Origin: a bacterium
GTDB taxonomy: Bacteria; Patescibacteriota; Minisyncoccia; Portnoybacterales; GWB1-42-6
DNA length: 38,853 bases
Reading direction: 5' to 3'
Assembly: GCA_043800535.1 (NCBI GenBank)
Contig: JAZDMV010000014.1
Coordinates: forward strand, 1-38,853
Below the pieces are notes generated by a model, which made no database searches, had not been told where the DNA came from, and worked only from the letters and a program-made list of their open reading frames with translations. Shown here piece by piece: positions 779 through 28,194 of this stretch (positions are counted from its first letter, which is position 1; every line of letters starts with the position of its first letter). The translations under genes were made by a program, and so were the position numbers.

Positions 779-1992
779 GTTTCTTTTTCGTTTCTCTTTT
801 TTATCTCCATTGAACCTTTTTCAAGAGTTTTTTCGCTTAAAACAATTCTTATCGGAATGCCGATAAGGTCAGCTTCGGCGAATTTTTGGCCGGGCGAGAC
901 TTCTTCTCTGTCGTCGTATAAAATTTCAACGCCGTCTTTGGTCAAAGCCGCTTCTAAATTATCCGCGACTTTTTTGATCTCGTTGTTAACTGTTTCCTGT
1001 TTACTGCTAACTGTGATTAGATGCGCGCTAAACGGGGCAATTTCTTTTGGCCAAATAATTCCTTGTTCATCGTGAGAAATTTCAACCACGGTACCCATCA
1101 CTCGGCCCGGGCCGATGCCATAGCAGCCCATAATGACAAGCTGCTCTTTGCCATCTTTGTCGCGGAATTTTAATTCAAAAGGTTCAGAATATTTCGTGCC
1201 GAGCTTAAAAATATTGCCGACCTCAATCGCCTTTTCTTCCTTAAAATCGCTTGAGCCGCATTCAGGGCAGGCAGGTGTTTGGTCTTTTATATCCGCGTTA
1301 ACGGCCAGGTTGCATTTTTGACAGACAAAAATTGTGTCTTCGCCGGCGGGCGAAATCGTCTGAAATTCGTGGGAGTATTTTGAAAATGTGCCGCCCGAAG
1401 CCAGAGTCAAAAAAGTTTCTTTGCCCAGGCCTGTTCTCTCAAAGATCTTAAAATAAGCGGTTTTGACTTTATCGTAATATTCGTCCAGGTCTTTTTGGTC
1501 GGCGTGAAAAGAATAGAGGTCTTTCATTAAAAATTCGCGGCCGCGCAGGAGGCCGGATCTGGCGCGGGGCTCGTCGCGGAATTTATCCTGGATCTGGAAA
1601 ACGGCAAAAGGCAGGTCTTTGTATGAAAAAATATGGCTTTTGGCCAGCGGCACGACGATTTCTTCGTGCGTTGGGGCAAGCGCGTAATCCTTGCCTTCTT
1701 TGCCTTTTAATTTAAAAAGCACGTCAAGCGCTTCCCAGCGGCCACTGGCGGCCCAGTTTTCTTTTGGGTTGAGCGCGGGCATTAAAATTTCCTGCCCGCC
1801 AAGCGCGGCCATTTCTTCGCGGATGATATTTTCTATTTTACGCAAAACTTTCAAGCCGAGAGGCAGGAAAGAATAAACGCCGGCTGTCAGTTTGTCCACA
1901 AAACCGGCGCGGGCCAGCAATTTGGCGTTGGCGCTTATTTCGTCGCGTGGCGCTTCCTTAAGAGTTTTGGTAAAAAGGAAAGACTGTCGCAT
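706..1992 (-). CDS. proS: Proline--tRNA ligase (short, archaeal/eukaryote-like type)
   Basis: 428-aa ORF. MRQSFLFTKTLKEAP..ISANAKLLARAGF and the class II motifs (FRDE.RARSGLLRGREF, GCYGIG) are typical of ProRS. Confidence 0.93.
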   Translation of the reverse strand: MRQSFLFTKTLKEAPRDEISANAKLLARAGFVDKLTAGVYSFLPLGLKVLRKIENIIREEMAALGGQEILMPALNPKENWAASGRWEALDVLFKLKGKEGKDYALAPTHEEIVVPLAKSHIFSYKDLPFAVFQIQDKFRDEPRARSGLLRGREFLMKDLYSFHADQKDLDEYYDKVKTAYFKIFERTGLGKETFLTLASGGTFSKYSHEFQTISPAGEDTIFVCQKCNLAVNADIKDQTPACPECGSSDFKEEKAIEVGNIFKLGTKYSEPFELKFRDKDGKEQLVIMGCYGIGPGRVMGTVVEISHDEQGIIWPKEIAPFSAHLITVSSKQETVNNEIKKVADNLEAALTKDGVEILYDDREEVSPGQKFAEADLIGIPIRIVLSEKTLEKGSMEIKKRNEKETQLVKLSDLKNLTALISSPASDSK

Positions 1993-5584: not shown

Positions 5585-5641
5585 AATTTTCAGAAAGAAC
5601 CGATAAACTATTTAACCCTAACCGTTTTAGCAGTTTTTAGT

Positions 5642-5810: not shown

Positions 5811-7112
5811 ATGACCGACAATAACCTGATGGAAAAGATTGTCAGTTTGTGCAAACGGCGGGGTTTTGTGTATCCTGGTTCGGAAATTTACGGCGGGCTG
5901 CAGGGCTTTTATGATTTTGGACCACTGGGCGTAGAAATGAAAAATAATTTGAAAAAGTTGTGGTGGCGTTGGATGACGATAGAGCATGAAAATATCGTCG
6001 GAATAGACGGCGCAATTATTACCCATCCTAAGGTCTGGGAGGCCAGCGGCCACTTAAAAAGCTTTGTTGATCCCTTAACGGAATGTAAAAAATGTCATCA
6101 TCGTTTTAAAGCCGACGATCTGGAGAGCAACAAATGTCCTGACTGCAGCGGGGAGCTGACCGAGCCAAAAAATTTCAATATCTTAGTGCCGACCCAACTT
6201 GGAGTGATTGAGGGAGAAAAAACGGATGCTTATCTAAGAGGAGAGGCCTGCCAGACAATTTATCTGGATTTTTTAAATGTTGTTAATTCAACGCGGGTGA
6301 AAGTTCCGTTTGGCATCGTGCAGATCGGCAAGGCCTTCCGCAATGAGGTCACTCCGGGCAATTTTTTATACCGCCAGCGGGAGTTTGAACAATGGGACTT
6401 GCAATGGTTTACGCACCCTTGCCAAATGGACAAGTGGTTTGAATACTGGAAGCAGGAACGGATGGATTGGTATAAAAGCATTTTTACTCATCCGGAGAAC
6501 CTTGGTTTTTACGAACACAAAAAGCTGGCGCATTACGCCAAAAAAGCTTTTGACATTGAATATAGTGCTTCGCCTTTCGGCAACAAAGAAATGGAAGGGA
6601 TCCATTGGCGCGGGGATTGGGACCTTTCCGGGCACGGCAAGTATTCGGGCAAGGACCTGGGCTACATGGACCAAGACACTAAAGAAAAGTATATTCCATG
6701 GATCGTTGAGACGTCCGGCGGAGTTGACAGGACATTTTTGTTTCTGTTAATTGATGCCTACGCAGAAGAAAAAGACAGGATTGTTTTAAAACTGAATCCA
6801 AAAGTGGCGCCTTATAAAACGGCCGTATTTCCGCTCTTGGCAAACAAGCCGCCATTGGTGGAATTGGCGAAGAAGATATATGACGATCTTCGCAAGGATC
6901 CGCCAGCTGGCGGGATGGTGGCCTGGGATGATCGGGGCAATATTGGTAAGCGTTATTATTCGCAGGACGAAATTGGCACGCCGTTCTGCATAACAATTGA
7001 TTTTGACAGTTTGGAAAAAGGCGATGTCACGGTTCGCGACCGCGACACGACAAAACAGGAAAGAATAAAAATCGGGGACTTAAAGAGCTTTTTGGAGGAA
7101 AAGTTGAAATAA
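5811..7112 (+). CDS. glyQS: Glycine--tRNA ligase (dimeric alpha2 type)
   Basis: 433-aa ORF. KRRGFVYPGSEIYGGL.GFYDFGPLG and FRNE..PGNFLYRQREFEQ are typical GlyQS motifs. Confidence 0.93.
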   Translation: MTDNNLMEKIVSLCKRRGFVYPGSEIYGGLQGFYDFGPLGVEMKNNLKKLWWRWMTIEHENIVGIDGAIITHPKVWEASGHLKSFVDPLTECKKCHHRFKADDLESNKCPDCSGELTEPKNFNILVPTQLGVIEGEKTDAYLRGEACQTIYLDFLNVVNSTRVKVPFGIVQIGKAFRNEVTPGNFLYRQREFEQWDLQWFTHPCQMDKWFEYWKQERMDWYKSIFTHPENLGFYEHKKLAHYAKKAFDIEYSASPFGNKEMEGIHWRGDWDLSGHGKYSGKDLGYMDQDTKEKYIPWIVETSGGVDRTFLFLLIDAYAEEKDRIVLKLNPKVAPYKTAVFPLLANKPPLVELAKKIYDDLRKDPPAGGMVAWDDRGNIGKRYYSQDEIGTPFCITIDFDSLEKGDVTVRDRDTTKQERIKIGDLKSFLEEKLK

Positions 7113-8048
7113 ATGGTTCAAAAACAAATTCTGGAACTGGCTATTAAAATGGGGGTCAAAGCCGATCTGCGGGGAGAAAAGGCGGTAAAAAAATACCTGG
7201 CCAGGCAAAAGAAAAAGTTTGATGAATTGCCGCCAAAAAGACAGGCGGAATTTGATAAAGAACGATTAGCGAATCCTTATATGGATTCAGGAATATGGGT
7301 GGACGACGCAAAGCCAGTAAAAAAAGCGCTGGCCGGAATTGATATTGGCACAGACGAAATACTGCTGGCCAGAGAATTGAATATAAGCGCTGTTATCAGC
7401 CATCATCCTCTCGGCAAGGGCCTGGCTATGTTGGACGAAGTAATGCATTTGCAGGCGGAGGTTCTCGCGCTTTACGGAATTCCAATAAATATTGCCGAAT
7501 CTTTGCTAAAGGTCAGAATTTCGGAAGTGGCGCGGGGAGTGCATCCTGTTAATCATTATCGGGCAATCAACGCGGCCCAGCTTCTGAAAATTAACTTGAT
7601 GAATGTGCACACTCCGGCCGATAACATGGTGGCCAGCTTCCTTAAAAAAGAAGTGGAAAGGAAAAAACCTGAATATCTTGATGAAGTTGTGGAGATCATA
7701 AAAAACATTGAGGAGTATAAAAGGGCGGCAAAACTCGGAACGCCCGTGAAATTGTTTGCCGGCTCAAAAGAGAACCGGGCAGGAAAGATCGCTTTCACAG
7801 AAATTACCGGCGGAACCGAGGGGTCCAAAGATATTTATCGGAAAATGGCCAATGCCGGCGTTGGCACGATTGTGGCGATGCATCTTTCCGAAGAACACCG
7901 CAAGAATGCGGAAGCCGCGCATATTAATGTCGTGGTTGCTCCGCATATCGCTTCGGATTCGCTCGGCATGAATTTATTTCTAGATGAAATAGAGAAAAAG
8001 GGGATTGAAATTATTCCATGCTCGGGGCTGATTAGGGTTAAAAGATAA
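7113..8048 (+). CDS. NIF3-like (DUF34) dinuclear metal-centre family protein (tentative)
   Basis: 311-aa ORF starting directly after the glyQS stop. The His-rich motifs ISHHPLGKG, NVHTPADN and APHIASDS resemble the NIF3 family. Confidence 0.5.
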   Translation: MVQKQILELAIKMGVKADLRGEKAVKKYLARQKKKFDELPPKRQAEFDKERLANPYMDSGIWVDDAKPVKKALAGIDIGTDEILLARELNISAVISHHPLGKGLAMLDEVMHLQAEVLALYGIPINIAESLLKVRISEVARGVHPVNHYRAINAAQLLKINLMNVHTPADNMVASFLKKEVERKKPEYLDEVVEIIKNIEEYKRAAKLGTPVKLFAGSKENRAGKIAFTEITGGTEGSKDIYRKMANAGVGTIVAMHLSEEHRKNAEAAHINVVVAPHIASDSLGMNLFLDEIEKKGIEIIPCSGLIRVKR

Positions 8049-23196: not shown

Positions 23197-23199
23197 ATG

Positions 23200-23283
23200 T
23201 GCCGCGGGAGAGAGTTGAACTCTCATGAGCGTGAGCTCATACGATTTTGAGTCGTACGTGTCTGCCAGTTCCACCACCGCGGC
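23200..23283 (-). tRNA. tRNA-Leu(CAA), class II with long variable arm
   Basis: Hand-folded: acceptor GCCGCGG/CCGCGGC, D arm GTG-GAACTGGCAGA-CAC, anticodon arm TACGA-CTCAAAA-TCGTA, variable arm TGAGC-TCAC-GCTCA, T arm GAGAG-TTCAACT-CTCTC, discriminator A. No CCA is encoded. Confidence 0.85.
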
Positions 23284-23524
23284 ATGATATTTGTAAATTA
23301 TCCAAAAATTTTCTGCCTATGCCACTCTTTAGAAAAACTTCTCTTTTCCTTGCTTCTTTATAATTTTGGAACTCTTCCGAGTGTATTAATGTGAAAGGTT
23401 TATATATTTTAGTGCTCTTATTACATCCTGTATTATGCTGTTTTAGCCGCCGAGACAGTTCGTTGGTTATGCCAATATAGCGGTAATTTTTTTCATTACT
23501 TTTTATTACGTAAAGATATATCAT
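23237..23524 (-). CDS. GIY-YIG nuclease family protein (small UPF0213-like)
   Basis: IYLYVIKS...YRYIGITNELSRRLKQHN..KSTK...PF.LIH.E.F....A..RE.FLKS..GR.FL. The last ~16 codons read into the tRNA-Leu 5' half. Confidence 0.8.
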   Translation of the reverse strand: MIYLYVIKSNEKNYRYIGITNELSRRLKQHNTGCNKSTKIYKPFTLIHSEEFQNYKEARKREVFLKSGIGRKFLDNLQISCRGGGTGRHVRLKIV

Positions 23525-23539
23525 TGAATTTCAGTCTGT

Positions 23540-23648
23540 TCGTACGTGGTCGCCTGAGGCGACTAAATCTGTCAACTCGCCAGAGGCGAGTAAACTTCGC
23601 TGTCCTGCGGCCAGCTTGCCCGCCTCTGGCGGGTTCCACCACCGCGGC
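23540..23648 (-). pseudogene. Displaced copy of the tRNA-Leu 5' half (positions 1-31) with an 84-nt insertion in the D loop
   Basis: GCCGCGGTGGTGGAAC (23633-23648) and CACGTACGA (23540-23548) are identical to the intact tRNA. The D-loop remainder is replaced by three hairpins (cccgccagaggcggg, ctcgcctctggcgag, gtcgcctcaggcgac). Identity stops exactly at the anticodon loop. Confidence 0.75.
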
Positions 23649-23657
23649 TCACTTTTC

Positions 23658-23686
23658 ATCTTATTGGCTGGACGCCTATTTGTCAA
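23658..23686 (-). promoter_or_regulatory. Sigma70-like promoter reading into the displaced tRNA half, the GIY-YIG ORF and tRNA-Leu
   Basis: On the minus strand: TTGACA (23686-23681), 17-nt spacer, TAAGAT (23663-23658). The tRNA-half 5' end lies 9 nt downstream. Confidence 0.55.
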
Positions 23687-23834: not shown

Positions 23835-24599
23835 GTGGCAAAGATAATCGCGTTCGTCAATCAAAAGGGCGGAGTGGGTAAAACGACTTCGGCCGTTAAT
23901 CTGGCCGCTTATTTGGCGGCGTTCGGAAAATATGTTTTGCTGGTTGATCTGGACCCGCAAGCCAATGCCACAGCCGGCCTTGGTTTTGAGCCGGAGGGAT
24001 TAGATAAAAATTTGTATCACAGCTTAATCGGCCAATCCTCGCCGCAGGAACTTGTGCGCAAAACAAACATCTTTGGCTATGAGATTATTCCTGCTTCGGG
24101 TGATTTGGCAGGCGCGGCGGTTGAGCTTGTGCCTTTAGAAAACCGGGAATTCCGTCTTTGGAACATGCTGCATGCCATTCGCACAAATTATGACTATATT
24201 ATCATTGATTCGCCGCCGAGTTTGGGCCTGCTGACAATTAATGGTCTGGTAGCGGCAGACGAACTGATCATTCCTGTGCAGACAGAATATTATGCGCTTG
24301 AGGGCCTCGGCCAGCTTCTGAAAACGGTTAATTTAATTCAGGAAAATCTTGGCAAGGATTTAAAAATCAAAGGCGCGCTTCTGACAATGTTTGACAAAAG
24401 GAATAAATTGAGCCAGCAGGTGGCCAAAGAAGTTCGTCTGCATTTTCCCGGTTATGTTTTTGAGACGCAGATCCCAAGATGTGTCCGTCTGGGAGAGGCA
24501 CCAAGTTTTGGCAAAACGATTCTCCAGCACGACGCTTCTTCCAAGGGCGGAAAAGCTTATCGCCAGCTGGCGGAAGAAATTTTGAGGATGGAACAATAA
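23835..24599 (+). CDS. parA: ParA/Soj chromosome-partitioning ATPase
   Basis: Deviant Walker A NQKGGVGKTT. GTG start. Confidence 0.9.
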   Translation: MAKIIAFVNQKGGVGKTTSAVNLAAYLAAFGKYVLLVDLDPQANATAGLGFEPEGLDKNLYHSLIGQSSPQELVRKTNIFGYEIIPASGDLAGAAVELVPLENREFRLWNMLHAIRTNYDYIIIDSPPSLGLLTINGLVAADELIIPVQTEYYALEGLGQLLKTVNLIQENLGKDLKIKGALLTMFDKRNKLSQQVAKEVRLHFPGYVFETQIPRCVRLGEAPSFGKTILQHDASSKGGKAYRQLAEEILRMEQ

Positions 24600-24609
24600 T
24601 TTTTTTAAC

Positions 24610-24793
24610 CTACTTTTCTGGCAGCAGAAAAGTAGCAAAAGACTGCTTGCACGAAAAATTTTAACAAAATTTGACTCGCTTCTTGTAAAATTTGCTAAGC
24701 TAAACTTTTCCCCCGACGTACGTCGGGGTCGTCGGCCACGCAAATTTTACCAGTAGCTTGCCTAAATTTTGTGATAAAATTTTTCGATGCAAG
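24610..24793 (+). repeat. ~185-bp nested-palindrome element, copy C (between parA and parB)
   Basis: ctacttttctg-gcag-cagaaaagtag, central hairpin ccccgacgtacgtcgggg, and 3' end gataaaatttttcgatgcaag. Confidence 0.85.
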
Positions 24794-24808: not shown

Positions 24809-25708
24809 ATGGCTACTATCGGTAAAGGACTTCATTCCTTAATCCCTCCGAAGTCGGTTTCGCAGCAGGAGCCGGACTTTCCTAAAGTTTCCGGGCCTTT
24901 GGCGCGGATGAAAAAGGAAAGCGTGTTTAATATTGAAATAAATAAGATCAGGCCGAATCCCATGCAACCGCGCCAGGAAATGGACAGGGGAGACCTGGAA
25001 GAGCTGGCCGAATCGATCAAAGAGCACGGGATTTTGCAGCCGCTGATAGTTACCAAAAGCGTCAAGGATGTTGATAAGGGCCAGGATGTTGAATATACCC
25101 TAATTGCCGGGCATAGGCGCTGGGAGGCGGCAAAGATAGCTGGCTTGCCGCATGTGCCCGCAATCATACGCGATTCAACCGAGCAGCAAAAATTAGAATT
25201 GGCGCTGGTTGAAAATCTGCAGCGGGCTGATCTAAATGCCCTGGATAAAGCCAAGGCATTTAAACGGCTGCACGATGAATTTGATTTGACTCACGAGGAG
25301 ATCGGTCAGAAGATGGGTAAAAGCCGCGAAGTCGTGACAAACACTCTGCGCCTGCTTAATTTGCCGCAGGAAATTCAGGACGGTCTGGCTGCCGGCAAAA
25401 TTGCCGAGGGTCACGCCAAAATGATCGCCGGCATCAAAAGCCCGCAGACCCAAAAAGCGCTTTATGACGAAATTTTGCAAAATAACTTAAACGTCAGGCA
25501 GGTTGAGCAAAGAGCGCGGGAAATTTCCGTTTCGGCGCACAAGCGTAAAGTATTTCACGACCCGGAAATTAAAAAAATCGCCGGGCAGCTGACGGCGCAT
25601 CTGGGAAACAAGGTTGATATCAGGCGCTCGGGCGTCGGCGGAAAAGTGGTAATCGATTTTTTAGATAAGGGCGACCTAGAAAACGTGGTGAAAAAAATTA
25701 TAGAGTGA
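24809..25708 (+). CDS. parB: ParB/Spo0J partition protein
   Basis: GILQPLIV and LIAGHRRWEAAK motifs plus an HTH region. I prefer the ATG at 24809 because the track start (24758) lies inside repeat copy C. Confidence 0.9.
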   Translation: MATIGKGLHSLIPPKSVSQQEPDFPKVSGPLARMKKESVFNIEINKIRPNPMQPRQEMDRGDLEELAESIKEHGILQPLIVTKSVKDVDKGQDVEYTLIAGHRRWEAAKIAGLPHVPAIIRDSTEQQKLELALVENLQRADLNALDKAKAFKRLHDEFDLTHEEIGQKMGKSREVVTNTLRLLNLPQEIQDGLAAGKIAEGHAKMIAGIKSPQTQKALYDEILQNNLNVRQVEQRAREISVSAHKRKVFHDPEIKKIAGQLTAHLGNKVDIRRSGVGGKVVIDFLDKGDLENVVKKIIE

Positions 25709-25719
25709 CCCACCACCAA

Positions 25720-25765
25720 TTACTGTTTCCACGACACCGAAACTAACCTTTCGGTGTTTTTGATT
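25720..25765. repeat. 46-bp direct repeat, copy 1 (remnant copy of the RSH gene 3' end; its hairpin can terminate parB)
   Basis: ttactgtttccacgacaccgaaactaacctttcggtgtttttgatt is identical to 26450-26495. It has the hairpin acaccgaaa/tttcggtgt plus a T-run. Confidence 0.95.
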
Positions 25766-25771
25766 AAAAAA

Positions 25772-25800
25772 AGAGCCCGATCAGTTATCTGATGGGCTCT
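25772..25800 (-). terminator. Hairpin terminator of the 181-aa ORF
   Basis: agagcccgatcag-ttat-ctgatgggctct, flanked by an A-run on plus (a T-run on minus). Confidence 0.6.
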
Positions 25801-25826
25801 TTAAAATGTTTGAGCCGAATGTTGTT

Positions 25827-26372
25827 TTATCCTTCGATACTTATACCGCCGTCAAATCTTGCTTTCGCGATAAGGAAATCTTGCAGCTTGGTCCATTCAG
25901 TAGTACCGGCAGGTTTGACCAGCGGCGTCAACTGAAGTTTAAGGTGTTTGACCTCGTTTTTTGGGATGCCGAGGACTTGGGTGATAATAAGAATGCCACG
26001 TTTAAAGGCGATTAAAGGGAAATAGGAATTTTTTGGCAGGTGAAAAATAAAACTTAGCCAGTTTTCTTGTGTAAGATAAAAATCTGTAAATTTGCCATCG
26101 GCGATCAAAGGGTTAATCCTCTGCGTGACTGTGGCTATGACTCGCGGGTCATTTTTTTGGCCATGAGCCCACCACAATGGCGTCGTGATCTGGCCATGTT
26201 GATTATCTTTTTGTCGCACCAGAACATAGCTGGCGTGATAGCAATTATGTCTTGCCACACAACGGGGCCCTGCCTTTGTTGGTTCCGTCTGGTCCGGTAA
26301 TAGCAGATCAGTGAATTTTGCACTGCTTCCATCAAAATCCCACAATAGTCGCATTCGCAGCTTTTCTTTCAT
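25827..26372 (-). CDS. Hypothetical protein (orphan, 181 aa) on a repeat-flanked cassette
   Basis: SD aaaggagg lies 6 nt upstream of the ATG. A possible own promoter on minus is TTGACT-17-TATTTT. I recognise no family. Confidence 0.65.
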   Translation of the reverse strand: MKEKLRMRLLWDFDGSSAKFTDLLLPDQTEPTKAGPRCVARHNCYHASYVLVRQKDNQHGQITTPLWWAHGQKNDPRVIATVTQRINPLIADGKFTDFYLTQENWLSFIFHLPKNSYFPLIAFKRGILIITQVLGIPKNEVKHLKLQLTPLVKPAGTTEWTKLQDFLIAKARFDGGISIEG

Positions 26373-26449
26373 ATAGTCCTCCTTTTTGGGAAAGATCTGG
26401 TTTTCTATTGTTATCTAAAAATAGCAGAGAAATACAGCGCAGTCAATTT

Positions 26450-26495
26450 TTACTGTTTCCACGACACCGAAACTAACCTTTCGGTGTTTTTGATT
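26450..26495. repeat. 46-bp direct repeat, copy 2 (last 15 codons plus stop of the RSH gene)
   Basis: Identical to 25720-25765. Confidence 0.95.
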
Positions 26496-28180: not shown

Positions 28181-28194
28181 GCGATTTCCTCCCT

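Follow-up and report, generated by a model that had tools for sequence, protein, structure and literature searches.

An accessory gene between the convergent parB and rel genes of Portnoybacteria-like bacteria is flanked by copies of a rel 3′ end that probably contains the parB terminator

Integrative elements that carry a replacement 3′ end for the gene they enter are well known, for instance lambdoid phage 21 and e14 in the icd gene of Escherichia coli, and many islands have been found in tRNA and tmRNA genes. The concerted evolution of short repeats by gene conversion, repeat-mediated deletion and Campbell-type reintegration likewise belong to general recombination biology. Here, we describe a locus that combines known phenomena in a new form, namely a relic 3′ end beside an insertion, an embedded terminator and the concerted evolution of short repeats. 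It lies in a contig of 38,853 nt (JAZDMV010000014.1) from a bacterium of the Portnoybacterales, the whole of which we call the window, and it consists of a gene for an orphan protein of 181 amino acids (aa) placed between the convergent genes parB and rel and bracketed by two copies of a 46-bp direct repeat (Table 1). Rickettsia prowazekii is one bacterium in which transcription through convergent gene pairs has been studied (PMC3027695). Our own survey of the literature found nothing specific to this rel-orphan-parB locus.

The explanation that we consider reasonably probable, although far from certain, is that the gene was inserted long ago between convergent parB and rel, that a segment with two functions was duplicated, and that the two copies have since recombined with each other, in the window genome recently. 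The two copies are identical at 46 of 46 positions, with 730 nt from start to start, as an initial annotation made from the letters of the window had stated, and the 32-nt core of the repeat occurs at only two sites in the window when up to three mismatches are allowed (0 of 100 shuffles matched). The copy next to rel, here called proximal, covers the final 14 codons of the gene together with its stop codon, plus a single nucleotide of the codon before them; the initial annotation counted one codon too many. The distal copy begins 11 nt past the parB stop codon (TGA, 25706-25708). The 684 bp between the copies form a unit of one gene, and the list of open reading frames (ORFs) bears out the earlier statement that they carry a single sizeable ORF.

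Related loci, which we designate by L numbers, show that this arrangement is not peculiar to the window. Homologues of the orphan gene (30-62% aa identity) occupy the same slot between rel and parB in L001, L010, L011 and L002, the last of which belongs to a metagenome-assembled genome of Candidatus Portnoybacteria, and in L006 and L007, which are near-identical to L002. In every relative whose contig could be read, the orphan lies directly downstream of rel and upstream of a convergent parB and is flanked by the repeat, which settles for these loci the initial annotation's question as to whether homologues always accompany an RSH (RelA/SpoT homologue) gene and a duplication. All of the cassette-bearing loci have a second copy of the rel 3′ end just past the orphan terminator, and the boundary on the T-run side falls at the same nucleotide in each of them (...TTTTT(G/A)ATT, followed by the orphan terminator). 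What differs is the resemblance between the proximal and distal copies: perfect in the window, it is about 90% over 39-43 nt in L002 and L006, 75% over 40 nt in L001, 30/40 in L010 and 26/40 in L011. The initial annotation had allowed that the homologues might turn out to be core genes in a conserved syntenic position without a flanking duplication; the position is indeed conserved, but the genes are repeat-flanked and accessory rather than core.

In the rel frame, the distal copies can be recognised as relics of Rel C-termini (IKNTDKLVPVSWKAHE-stop in L001, IKNAERLISVSWKAH-stop in L002 and IKNTERLVSVSWKNQ-stop in L010). That of L001 is closer to the rel end of the outgroup L012 (33/39 nt) than to its own rel (29/39), those of L002 and L010 are of the TERL type, and those of L001 and L002 share the scar GCACAC in place of CAG-stop, which points to one old occupied allele of L001 and L002. 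The distal copy would be the original rel end left beside parB, because the sequence flanking the L002 copy, CTGATAGCATAAAG, agrees with CTGATAAGTATAAGG, the native spacer of L005, a locus in which the junction is empty. The spacers between parB and the distal copy are longer in L001 (10642-10808) and L002 (8347-8450), where they measure 100-170 nt, hold no ORF and can be aligned at their two ends only; the window has 11 nt and L005 has 22 nt. A non-coding RNA in these spacers or in the window was considered and rejected, as Rfam at the gathering threshold returned only tRNA-Leu. Other occupants of the slot were also observed. L002 has an additional 304-aa ORF between rel and the orphan homologue (6797-7711; 5797-6711 in L006 and L007) that matches nothing in Pfam or PADLOC, and L010 alone has a 78-aa hydrophobic ORF between its distal copy and parB (1531-1767, minus strand), which is another variable occupant of the slot.

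Because the gene order and the two-copy state recur in at least five independent assemblies, we consider it highly improbable that the perfect identity is an assembly artefact, whether through the merging of two nearly identical copies into a single consensus or through a chimeric joining of strains at the repeat. Two points would suit such an origin: the contig evidently comes from a metagenome and represents an uncultured lineage, with proteins known from metagenome sources only, and 46 bp is shorter than the k-mers of early assembly rounds. Common assemblers, however, end with k-mers longer than 46, which normally lets either copy be resolved along with the unique sequence beside it.

Equally informative are the relatives in which the junction between rel and parB is empty. 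Spacers separate the two genes in L005 and L012-L015, the genes overlap in L003 and L004, and L009 may be counted as an eighth case by virtue of the same shortened Rel alone. In L005, which lies on a 302-kb contig, the gap is 22 nt, and Rel is 89% identical to that of L002 and 74% identical to that of the window. The spacers of L012, L013, L014 and L015 measure 90, 89, 193 and 12 nt, respectively, and their Rel proteins, of Portnoybacteria type, are 62-73% identical to that of the window. In L003 and L004, the rel stop codon overlaps that of parB by 4 nt, and the L009 Rel matches residues 1-484. These last three loci come from distant Patescibacteria whose Rel, of about 491 aa, lacks the C-terminal region found in the window. 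Neighbour-joining trees, made for Rel and for ParB, show a clade A, ((window, L010), L001), that is occupied throughout and a sister clade B that joins the empty L005 to the occupied L002, L006 and L007; all other empty junctions fall outside these two clades. The comparison supports an ancestral state in which parB and rel were convergent, with a terminator inside the rel 3′ end, and in which the orphan gene is an insertion, as the initial annotation had supposed when it proposed a search for empty sites. It also indicates that the insertion dates to about the base of clades A and B, rather than to the recent past of the window genome.

The divergence of the window from L010 points in the same direction. 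A sliding comparison gave identities of 0.85-0.95 in rel, 0.82-0.92 in the orphan 5′ untranslated region, first codons and terminator, and about 0.9 in parB, with a synonymous divergence (dS) of about 0.6-0.7 in the flanks. The cassette thus predates the separation of the window and L010, because its ends are as diverged as the flanking rel and parB. The nearest relative of the window, L008, has a rel gene that is 95% identical, on a contig that stops inside rel, so the state of its junction lies outside the contig.

These data decide the fate of the chronology offered by the initial annotation, which took the perfection of the repeat to mean that a mobile single-gene cassette had entered an empty parB-rel junction recently and that its 46-bp target duplication had stayed perfect. 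We find this quite improbable. However well it would account for the perfect repeat, for the relatives with empty junctions and for a distal copy that holds the rel stop codon and abuts a short, native-looking spacer, the same gene and the same duplication boundary are present in five other diverged lineages, and such conserved synteny refutes a first-time insertion; in the window itself, the co-divergence of the cassette ends with rel and parB relative to L010 speaks against it. Horizontal exchange between lineages, which is seen in the body of the orphan gene, would also suit a mobile cassette, but this one encodes neither a transposase nor an integrase nor a homing nuclease, lacks terminal inverted repeats, has no further copy in the window, and has none in the phage, plasmid and viral collections searched. 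Moreover, 46 bp far exceeds the usual target-site duplications. A recent re-insertion is another matter and would be one form of the explanation preferred here.

As for the function of the repeat, it is probably the intrinsic terminator of parB, embedded in the last codons of rel. A consensus scan called both copies terminator-like on the plus strand, which is the parB sense, in agreement with the earlier suggestion that the hairpin and T-run could terminate parB. The hairpin of the distal copy lies 25 nt past the parB stop codon, and the predicted folding energy is -12.6 kcal/mol for the 46-nt repeat and -14.0 kcal/mol for its 76-nt context. The hairpin is kept in the distal copies of the window, L001, L010, L011 and L002; in L001, it holds by means of three G·U pairs that are valid in the parB sense only and one compensatory AU-to-CG pair. 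In the empty-site genomes, a hairpin and U-run lie within the last codons of rel, 12-90 nt downstream of the parB stop codon, and fold better in the parB sense. The strongest is that of L005, with -15.1 kcal/mol in the parB sense and -8.5 in the rel sense, a preference that arises because its G·U pairs are A·C mismatches on the other strand. Even in the outgroups L012 and L013, where the peptide is TDKLVPV and not TERLISV, the stem is kept through an AU-to-CG double change. Across 14 copies, pairing is maintained in 89% of the cells, versus 41-51% for slid partners, and the covariation score was reached by 5 of 500 shuffles.

The two copies have also parted ways in a manner that is consistent with this assignment, as the rel copies of L010 and L011 have no hairpin and their distal copies retain it. 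The duplication may have let the gene enter without costing parB its terminator or rel its C-terminus. In L010 (735-786), rel ends in 12 codons that are recoded with respect to the window, with nearly every codon changed, synonymously or in several steps, and both the hairpin and the homology to the repeat are gone, although the rel sequence that flanks this patch is about 90% identical to that of the window; the recoded end could be an imported patch or the outcome of selection against the repeat or the hairpin. The empty-site spacer of L012 (5241-5330) was seen to contain a GC-rich hairpin (GTCCCGCCGCGGCGGGAC) followed by a T-run in the rel sense, so that the convergent genes of this locus appear to have crossed terminators, that of rel in the spacer near parB and that of parB inside rel. 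We also considered the repeat as a parS site, given that TGTTTCCACG...CGAAAC recalls parS half-sites, but rejected this because the palindrome has a 6-nt spacer and because canonical parS (TGTTNCACGTGAAACA, up to three mismatches) is absent from the 38.8-kb window. The intergenic region between parA and parB (24596-24790) contains nested AT-rich inverted repeats.

The perfect identity in the window calls for an explanation of its own. In every other genome, the proximal and distal copies differ at 4-14 of 40 positions, and the loop bases and the six bases after TGGAAA vary among the distal copies (GCACAC, AATCAA). The distal copy of the window, in contrast, equals its own rel end in the loop, at CAGTAA and at window-specific bases. 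One could suppose that no recombination is involved and that identity reflects strong purifying selection, on codons and hairpin in the proximal copy and on hairpin and U-run in the distal one. The distal copies are indeed highly conserved despite saturated synonymous sites (38/40 between the window and L010, and 37/40 between L002 and L010), and 17 of the 46 columns are invariant across the 14 copies. Nevertheless, we give selection without recombination only a slim chance, as it would leave the differences within every other genome unexplained, and hairpin selection alone seems insufficient because the window copies share CAGTAA, which lies beyond the conserved part of the distal copies, together with window-specific bases. 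A recent copying event in the window appears to be needed, because several differences between the copies would be expected to have arisen since the split from L010 (dS ~0.6). Most likely, the window copies were recently made identical again, by gene conversion or by excision and reintegration.

Signs of recombination are found elsewhere in these loci. The tree of the orphan conflicts with those of its flanks: the orphans of L001 and L010 are 82% identical in aa sequence with a dS of 0.68, whereas the flanks of the same two loci have a dS above 2.9, and it is the window and L010 whose flanks are close (90-91% aa identity). The body of the L010 orphan is L001-like, with breakpoints near window positions 26350 and 25870. 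Between L002 and L006, only 9 of 9731 nt differ, and 4 of these 9 lie within 13 nt of the proximal repeat, for which our own arithmetic gives a binomial chance of about 6e-8; there are two doublets, and each allele agrees with the distal copy at one of them, a pattern expected of patchy conversion. The clustering itself speaks for patchy exchange rather than for constraint. L006 and L007, with seven differences in 9.7 kb, were also seen to differ by three consecutive substitutions in rel (5612-5614) and by one in the distal copy (7320) that weakens the L007 hairpin.

Regarding the manner of re-homogenisation in the window, the distal copy runs through the rel stop codon and is then followed by a short, unrelated spacer of native type. 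Reintegration into an empty junction through the 46-bp homology would fit best, because conversion from an L001-like relic lacks homology past TGGAAA. An excised circle may have entered by a Campbell-type single crossover, or there may have been two crossovers, one of which fell in the repeat.

Observed, then, are the structure of the locus, its conservation, the empty junctions, the selection on the gene and the signs of recombination, and from these we infer the following course of events. In the ancestors of the clade, parB and rel would have been convergent, with a Rho-independent terminator of parB, a 10-bp hairpin and a U-run, contained in the final 14 codons of rel. Long ago, an accessory gene equipped with a promoter, a Shine-Dalgarno sequence and a terminator of its own would have been placed between them, and the segment that starts at the rel stop codon and ends with the U-run would have been duplicated during its arrival. 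The copy contiguous with rel would have kept the coding role and the copy beside parB the terminator role, which amounts to a subfunctionalisation of the 46-bp element. Both copies would remain substrates for homologous recombination and would at times partly or wholly overwrite each other by gene conversion, and the cassette or its alleles could be exchanged, lost and re-gained through the homology of the repeats. A recent event of this kind in the window genome would have left the identity of 46/46.

Should this be right, the time at which a gene arrived cannot simply be read from the perfection of the repeats around it. A sequence with overlapping functions, here codons and the terminator of a convergent neighbour, would constrain insertion in a streamlined genome, and duplication would resolve the conflict by leaving one copy as terminator and the other as coding sequence, in some lineages recoded to the point that hairpin and homology vanish. 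Homology of forty-odd base pairs would then be enough for concerted evolution and, probably, for related uncultured bacteria to gain and lose an accessory gene.

Several observations weigh against this explanation. Gene conversion is hard to extend through the stop codon into a non-homologous flank, an excised circle is hypothetical, and the identity of 46/46 is as given by a single assembled contig. The terminator role is read from sequence and predicted folding; the covariation amounts to a single compensatory pair and several wobbles, seen in 14 sequences that are short and related, the distal copy of L007 carries a change that weakens its hairpin to -3.9 kcal/mol, and that of L002 has one mismatch. 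No positive evidence bears on the function of the protein. Finally, presence and absence misfit a simple history, as L001 and L002 share a scar and L005, the sister of L002, has an intact empty junction. A simple vertical history with a single loss was rejected on account of this conflict, and at least one allelic replacement by homologous recombination must be assumed because decayed copies could not simply have recombined to the intact L005 junction. Such a replacement is plausible because the orphan gene is a mosaic.

A bolder proposal, which we regard as unlikely though worth stating, makes the repeat the recombination handle of an integrase-less mini-cassette. A circle of about 0.7 kb, or linear DNA, would be reinstalled by homologous recombination in empty rel-parB junctions of related Patescibacteria, each cycle resetting the repeats and supplying both the rel C-terminus and the parB terminator; the other genes found in the slot might travel likewise, and the basic orphan protein could modulate Rel or partitioning under diversifying selection. 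If true, the streamlined, naturally transformable genomes of the candidate phyla radiation (CPR) would possess a very simple kind of gene mobility.

Turning to the gene itself, it is supported, on sequence grounds, as a separate transcription unit with its own promoter, Shine-Dalgarno sequence and terminator, conserved across lineages. TTGAC after the rel stop codon, a TAnnnT hexamer 17 nt further on and AGGAGG are conserved in the window, L010, L001 and L011, so the signals proposed in the initial annotation are present. An A-run on the far side of the terminator hairpin makes it potentially bidirectional. The ORF appears to be a real coding gene, under selection but fast-evolving, because its pairwise ratio of non-synonymous to synonymous divergence is 0.15-0.23 (compared with 0.02-0.10 for rel, parB and parA); the conservation of its promoter, Shine-Dalgarno sequence and terminator was also counted in favour. 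The protein appears to be dispensable, as the absence of the gene from L005 suggests.

In accordance with the first impression that it belongs to no recognised family, the protein had no match in Pfam (E <= 1), NCBIfam, PHROGs or PADLOC, and a sequence profile search of the PDB returned 0 matches at E <= 10. Only four relatives emerged when 5.8 billion proteins were searched by word index and 1.8 billion cluster representatives were scanned in full with HMMER, namely P0002 and P0003 at 59-61% identity and P0004 and P0005 at about 30%. The family thus amounts to about five sequence clusters among 5.8 billion proteins, from metagenome sources only. A further match in the search of representatives, the 2515-aa repeat protein P0006 (E = 4.6e-07), is a low-complexity, adhesin-like protein and was discarded as spurious. 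The family has no relatives among the viral contigs, phage genomes and plasmids of IMG/VR, INPHARED and PLSDB, on which ground a phage or plasmid origin was rejected. An origin by tandem duplication of the rel C-terminal region was likewise rejected, as hhalign of the family against Rel C-termini gave a probability of 0.25%, BLASTP found nothing, and tblastn in all frames found no trace in rel, parB or the rest of the window.

The family is uniformly basic (isoelectric point, pI, 9.0-10.1), lacks a hydrophobic segment and shows few invariant polar residues in its alignment. An AlphaFold2 model built from the five-sequence alignment (predicted local distance difference test, pLDDT, 82.8; predicted template modelling score, pTM, 0.77) has an N-terminal five-stranded sheet and a C-terminal alpha/beta half. 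Foldseek searches of the PDB and BFVD with this model gave nothing at E < 0.001; the best matches were weak (E 0.03, template modelling score ~0.3), and the recurrent ones, class I chaperones of type III secretion systems and ferredoxin-like dimers, are not regarded as evidence. As a tentative best guess, we favour a binding or adaptor-type role, towards nucleic acid or protein, over an enzyme. The initial annotation thought a stress or defence function worth testing because of the neighbouring alarmone synthetase, for which we found no evidence. A role in defence or as a toxin-antitoxin component receives low weight, because PADLOC and PHROGs gave no match (PADLOC for any member of the family) and because the adjacent RSH is a long Rel of the ordinary kind and no toxic small alarmone synthetase: a RelA_RIS domain precomputed on the window Rel and its orthologues completes the HD, synthetase, TGS and C-terminal regulatory set of a long RSH. 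Even the association with rel, a conserved single-copy neighbour of topA and parB across the clade, may only reflect a convergent junction that tolerates insertion, because two other unrelated small ORFs use the slot in relatives. Nothing so far shows any physiological importance of the protein. Nevertheless, it is a candidate for structural and interaction studies because it represents a tiny, clade-restricted family, always found beside rel, with a confidently predicted fold that has no known structural neighbour.

Table 1. Features of the rel-parB locus, in window coordinates
Feature	Positions	Strand	Remarks
parB (chromosome partitioning protein)	24809-25708	+	Pfam ParB_N, HTH_ParB and ParB_C; orthologues at all related loci
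11-nt spacer between parB stop codon and distal repeat, CCCACCACCAA	25709-25719	.	similar in length to short native spacers at empty junctions (L015, 12 nt; L005, 22 nt)
Distal repeat copy, non-coding fossil of the rel 3′ end including its stop codon	25720-25765	+	
Putative intrinsic parB terminator: 10-bp stem and 6-nt loop, followed by TTTTTGATT	25733-25758 (hairpin), within the distal copy	+	consensus scan and folding
Terminator hairpin of the 181-aa gene, followed by U7	~25770-25802	-	-19.9 kcal/mol, z = -5.1; homologous hairpins in L001 and L010
181-aa gene	25827-26372	-	product predicted basic (pI 9.6), soluble and alpha/beta; clade-restricted family seen solely in the rel-parB slot
Shine-Dalgarno sequence AGGAGG of the 181-aa gene	26378-26383	-	invariant in four lineages
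Sigma-70-like promoter TTGACT-17-TATTTT of the 181-aa gene	26418-26446	-	directly 3′ of the rel stop codon
Proximal repeat copy: rel stop codon, last 14 codons (IKNTERLVSVSWKQ-stop) and 1 nt	26450-26495	-	
Long RSH (Rel) gene, 576 aa	26450-28180	-	Pfam HD_4 7.8e-39, RelA_SpoT 1.8e-38, TGS 1.5e-22

The parB start in Table 1 follows the homologues, which begin with MATIGKG and place it at the ATG at 24809; the ORF list gives a TTG at 24758. On the other side of rel, L002 (4291-4839) and L012-L015 have a NUDIX-like ORF of about 180-205 aa in the interval that separates rel from topA. The window (28181-28194) and L001 have no such ORF, and their gap between topA and rel is about 10-14 nt. Elsewhere in the window (23199-23660, minus strand), another cassette of one gene, again with a duplicated gene end, appears to be present. 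It holds a 95-aa GIY-YIG ORF (23237-23524) that overlaps the first 47 nt of the tRNA-Leu(CAA) gene (23199-23283), and a perfect 16-nt copy of the 5′ end of this tRNA (GCCGCGGTGGTGGAAC) lies upstream of the ORF at 23633-23648, followed by hairpin-rich sequence and a stretch that resembles an anticodon arm (CACGTACGA...). In L001, L005, L014 and L015, the 15-mer of the tRNA 5′ end is single-copy within the stretches examined.

Among known systems, the closest likeness is to the integrative elements that bring a replacement 3′ end. As in those, direct repeats flank the insert at both junctions, one copy completes the functional 3′ end of the target gene while the other is a non-functional relic in coding terms, and the relic may be of another type than the functional end, as in L001, whose relic is of the TDKLVPV type and whose functional end is of the TERLISV type. 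The differences are that the window cassette is a 684-bp unit of one gene, without an integrase, known from one locus in one clade, and that its repeats decay, are recoded or are homogenised, with a putative terminator function for the relic. The likeness invites the idea that the orphan is cargo of a site-specific integrative element and that the repeat is an att core served in trans by a tyrosine or serine recombinase, in the manner of satellites or integrons. Direct repeats that duplicate the 3′ end of a target gene are the classic signature of attL and attR, the boundaries are identical in all lineages, and the repeat contains an imperfect palindrome. Even so, we hold this to be very improbable: no recombinase was found in the cassette or in its neighbours parB and rel, and the predicted fold, a beta-rich alpha/beta one, is not recombinase-like; every known member of the family sits at one locus, the rel-parB slot beside the rel of its own genome, and none at another locus or replicon, viral and plasmid DNA included; and the repeats decay or become recoded in some lineages, as passive homology would.

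Other mobile systems were also compared. There are no inverted repeats at the cassette ends besides the terminator hairpins, and no second copy of the repeat or the ORF in the 38.8 kb of the genome that were searched, as an insertion sequence or a miniature inverted-repeat transposable element might have. For integron cassettes, the comparison covered the unit between the repeats: no attC-like imperfect palindrome was seen there beyond the two terminator hairpins, and the 181-aa gene, unlike those of typical integron cassettes, has a promoter of its own. Homing endonuclease domains of the GIY-YIG, HNH or LAGLIDADG kind were absent from the protein (Pfam, E <= 1), in a scan that detected the GIY-YIG ORF elsewhere in the window. 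As for toxic small alarmone synthetases and RSH-linked defence, the neighbour is, as described above, a 576-aa Rel with HD, synthetase, TGS and RIS domains. The orphan does resemble the hypothetical accessory genes of CPR bacteria in being small, known from metagenomes only, fast-evolving and without a Pfam, NCBIfam, PHROG or PADLOC model; it differs in having an unusually well-defined locus and a confident model (pLDDT 83) with no structural neighbour at E < 0.001.

The copies of the repeat behave in part as in concerted evolution, since copies within a genome share lineage-specific bases, substitutions are clustered between near-identical genomes, and an empty allele is found in a sister lineage. 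Unlike in the usual cases, the repeats here have the very small length of 40-46 bp, coding constrains one of the two, and an excised circle and a population polymorphism are hypothetical. Lastly, as with other terminators embedded in convergent genes, a hairpin and U-run follow one gene while lying within the coding end of its convergent neighbour, and the genomes are compact, with very short spacers between the genes, as in L015 and L005. In contrast to the known embedded terminators, the one proposed here would be duplicated, with its two functions split onto two copies that can be traced across lineages.

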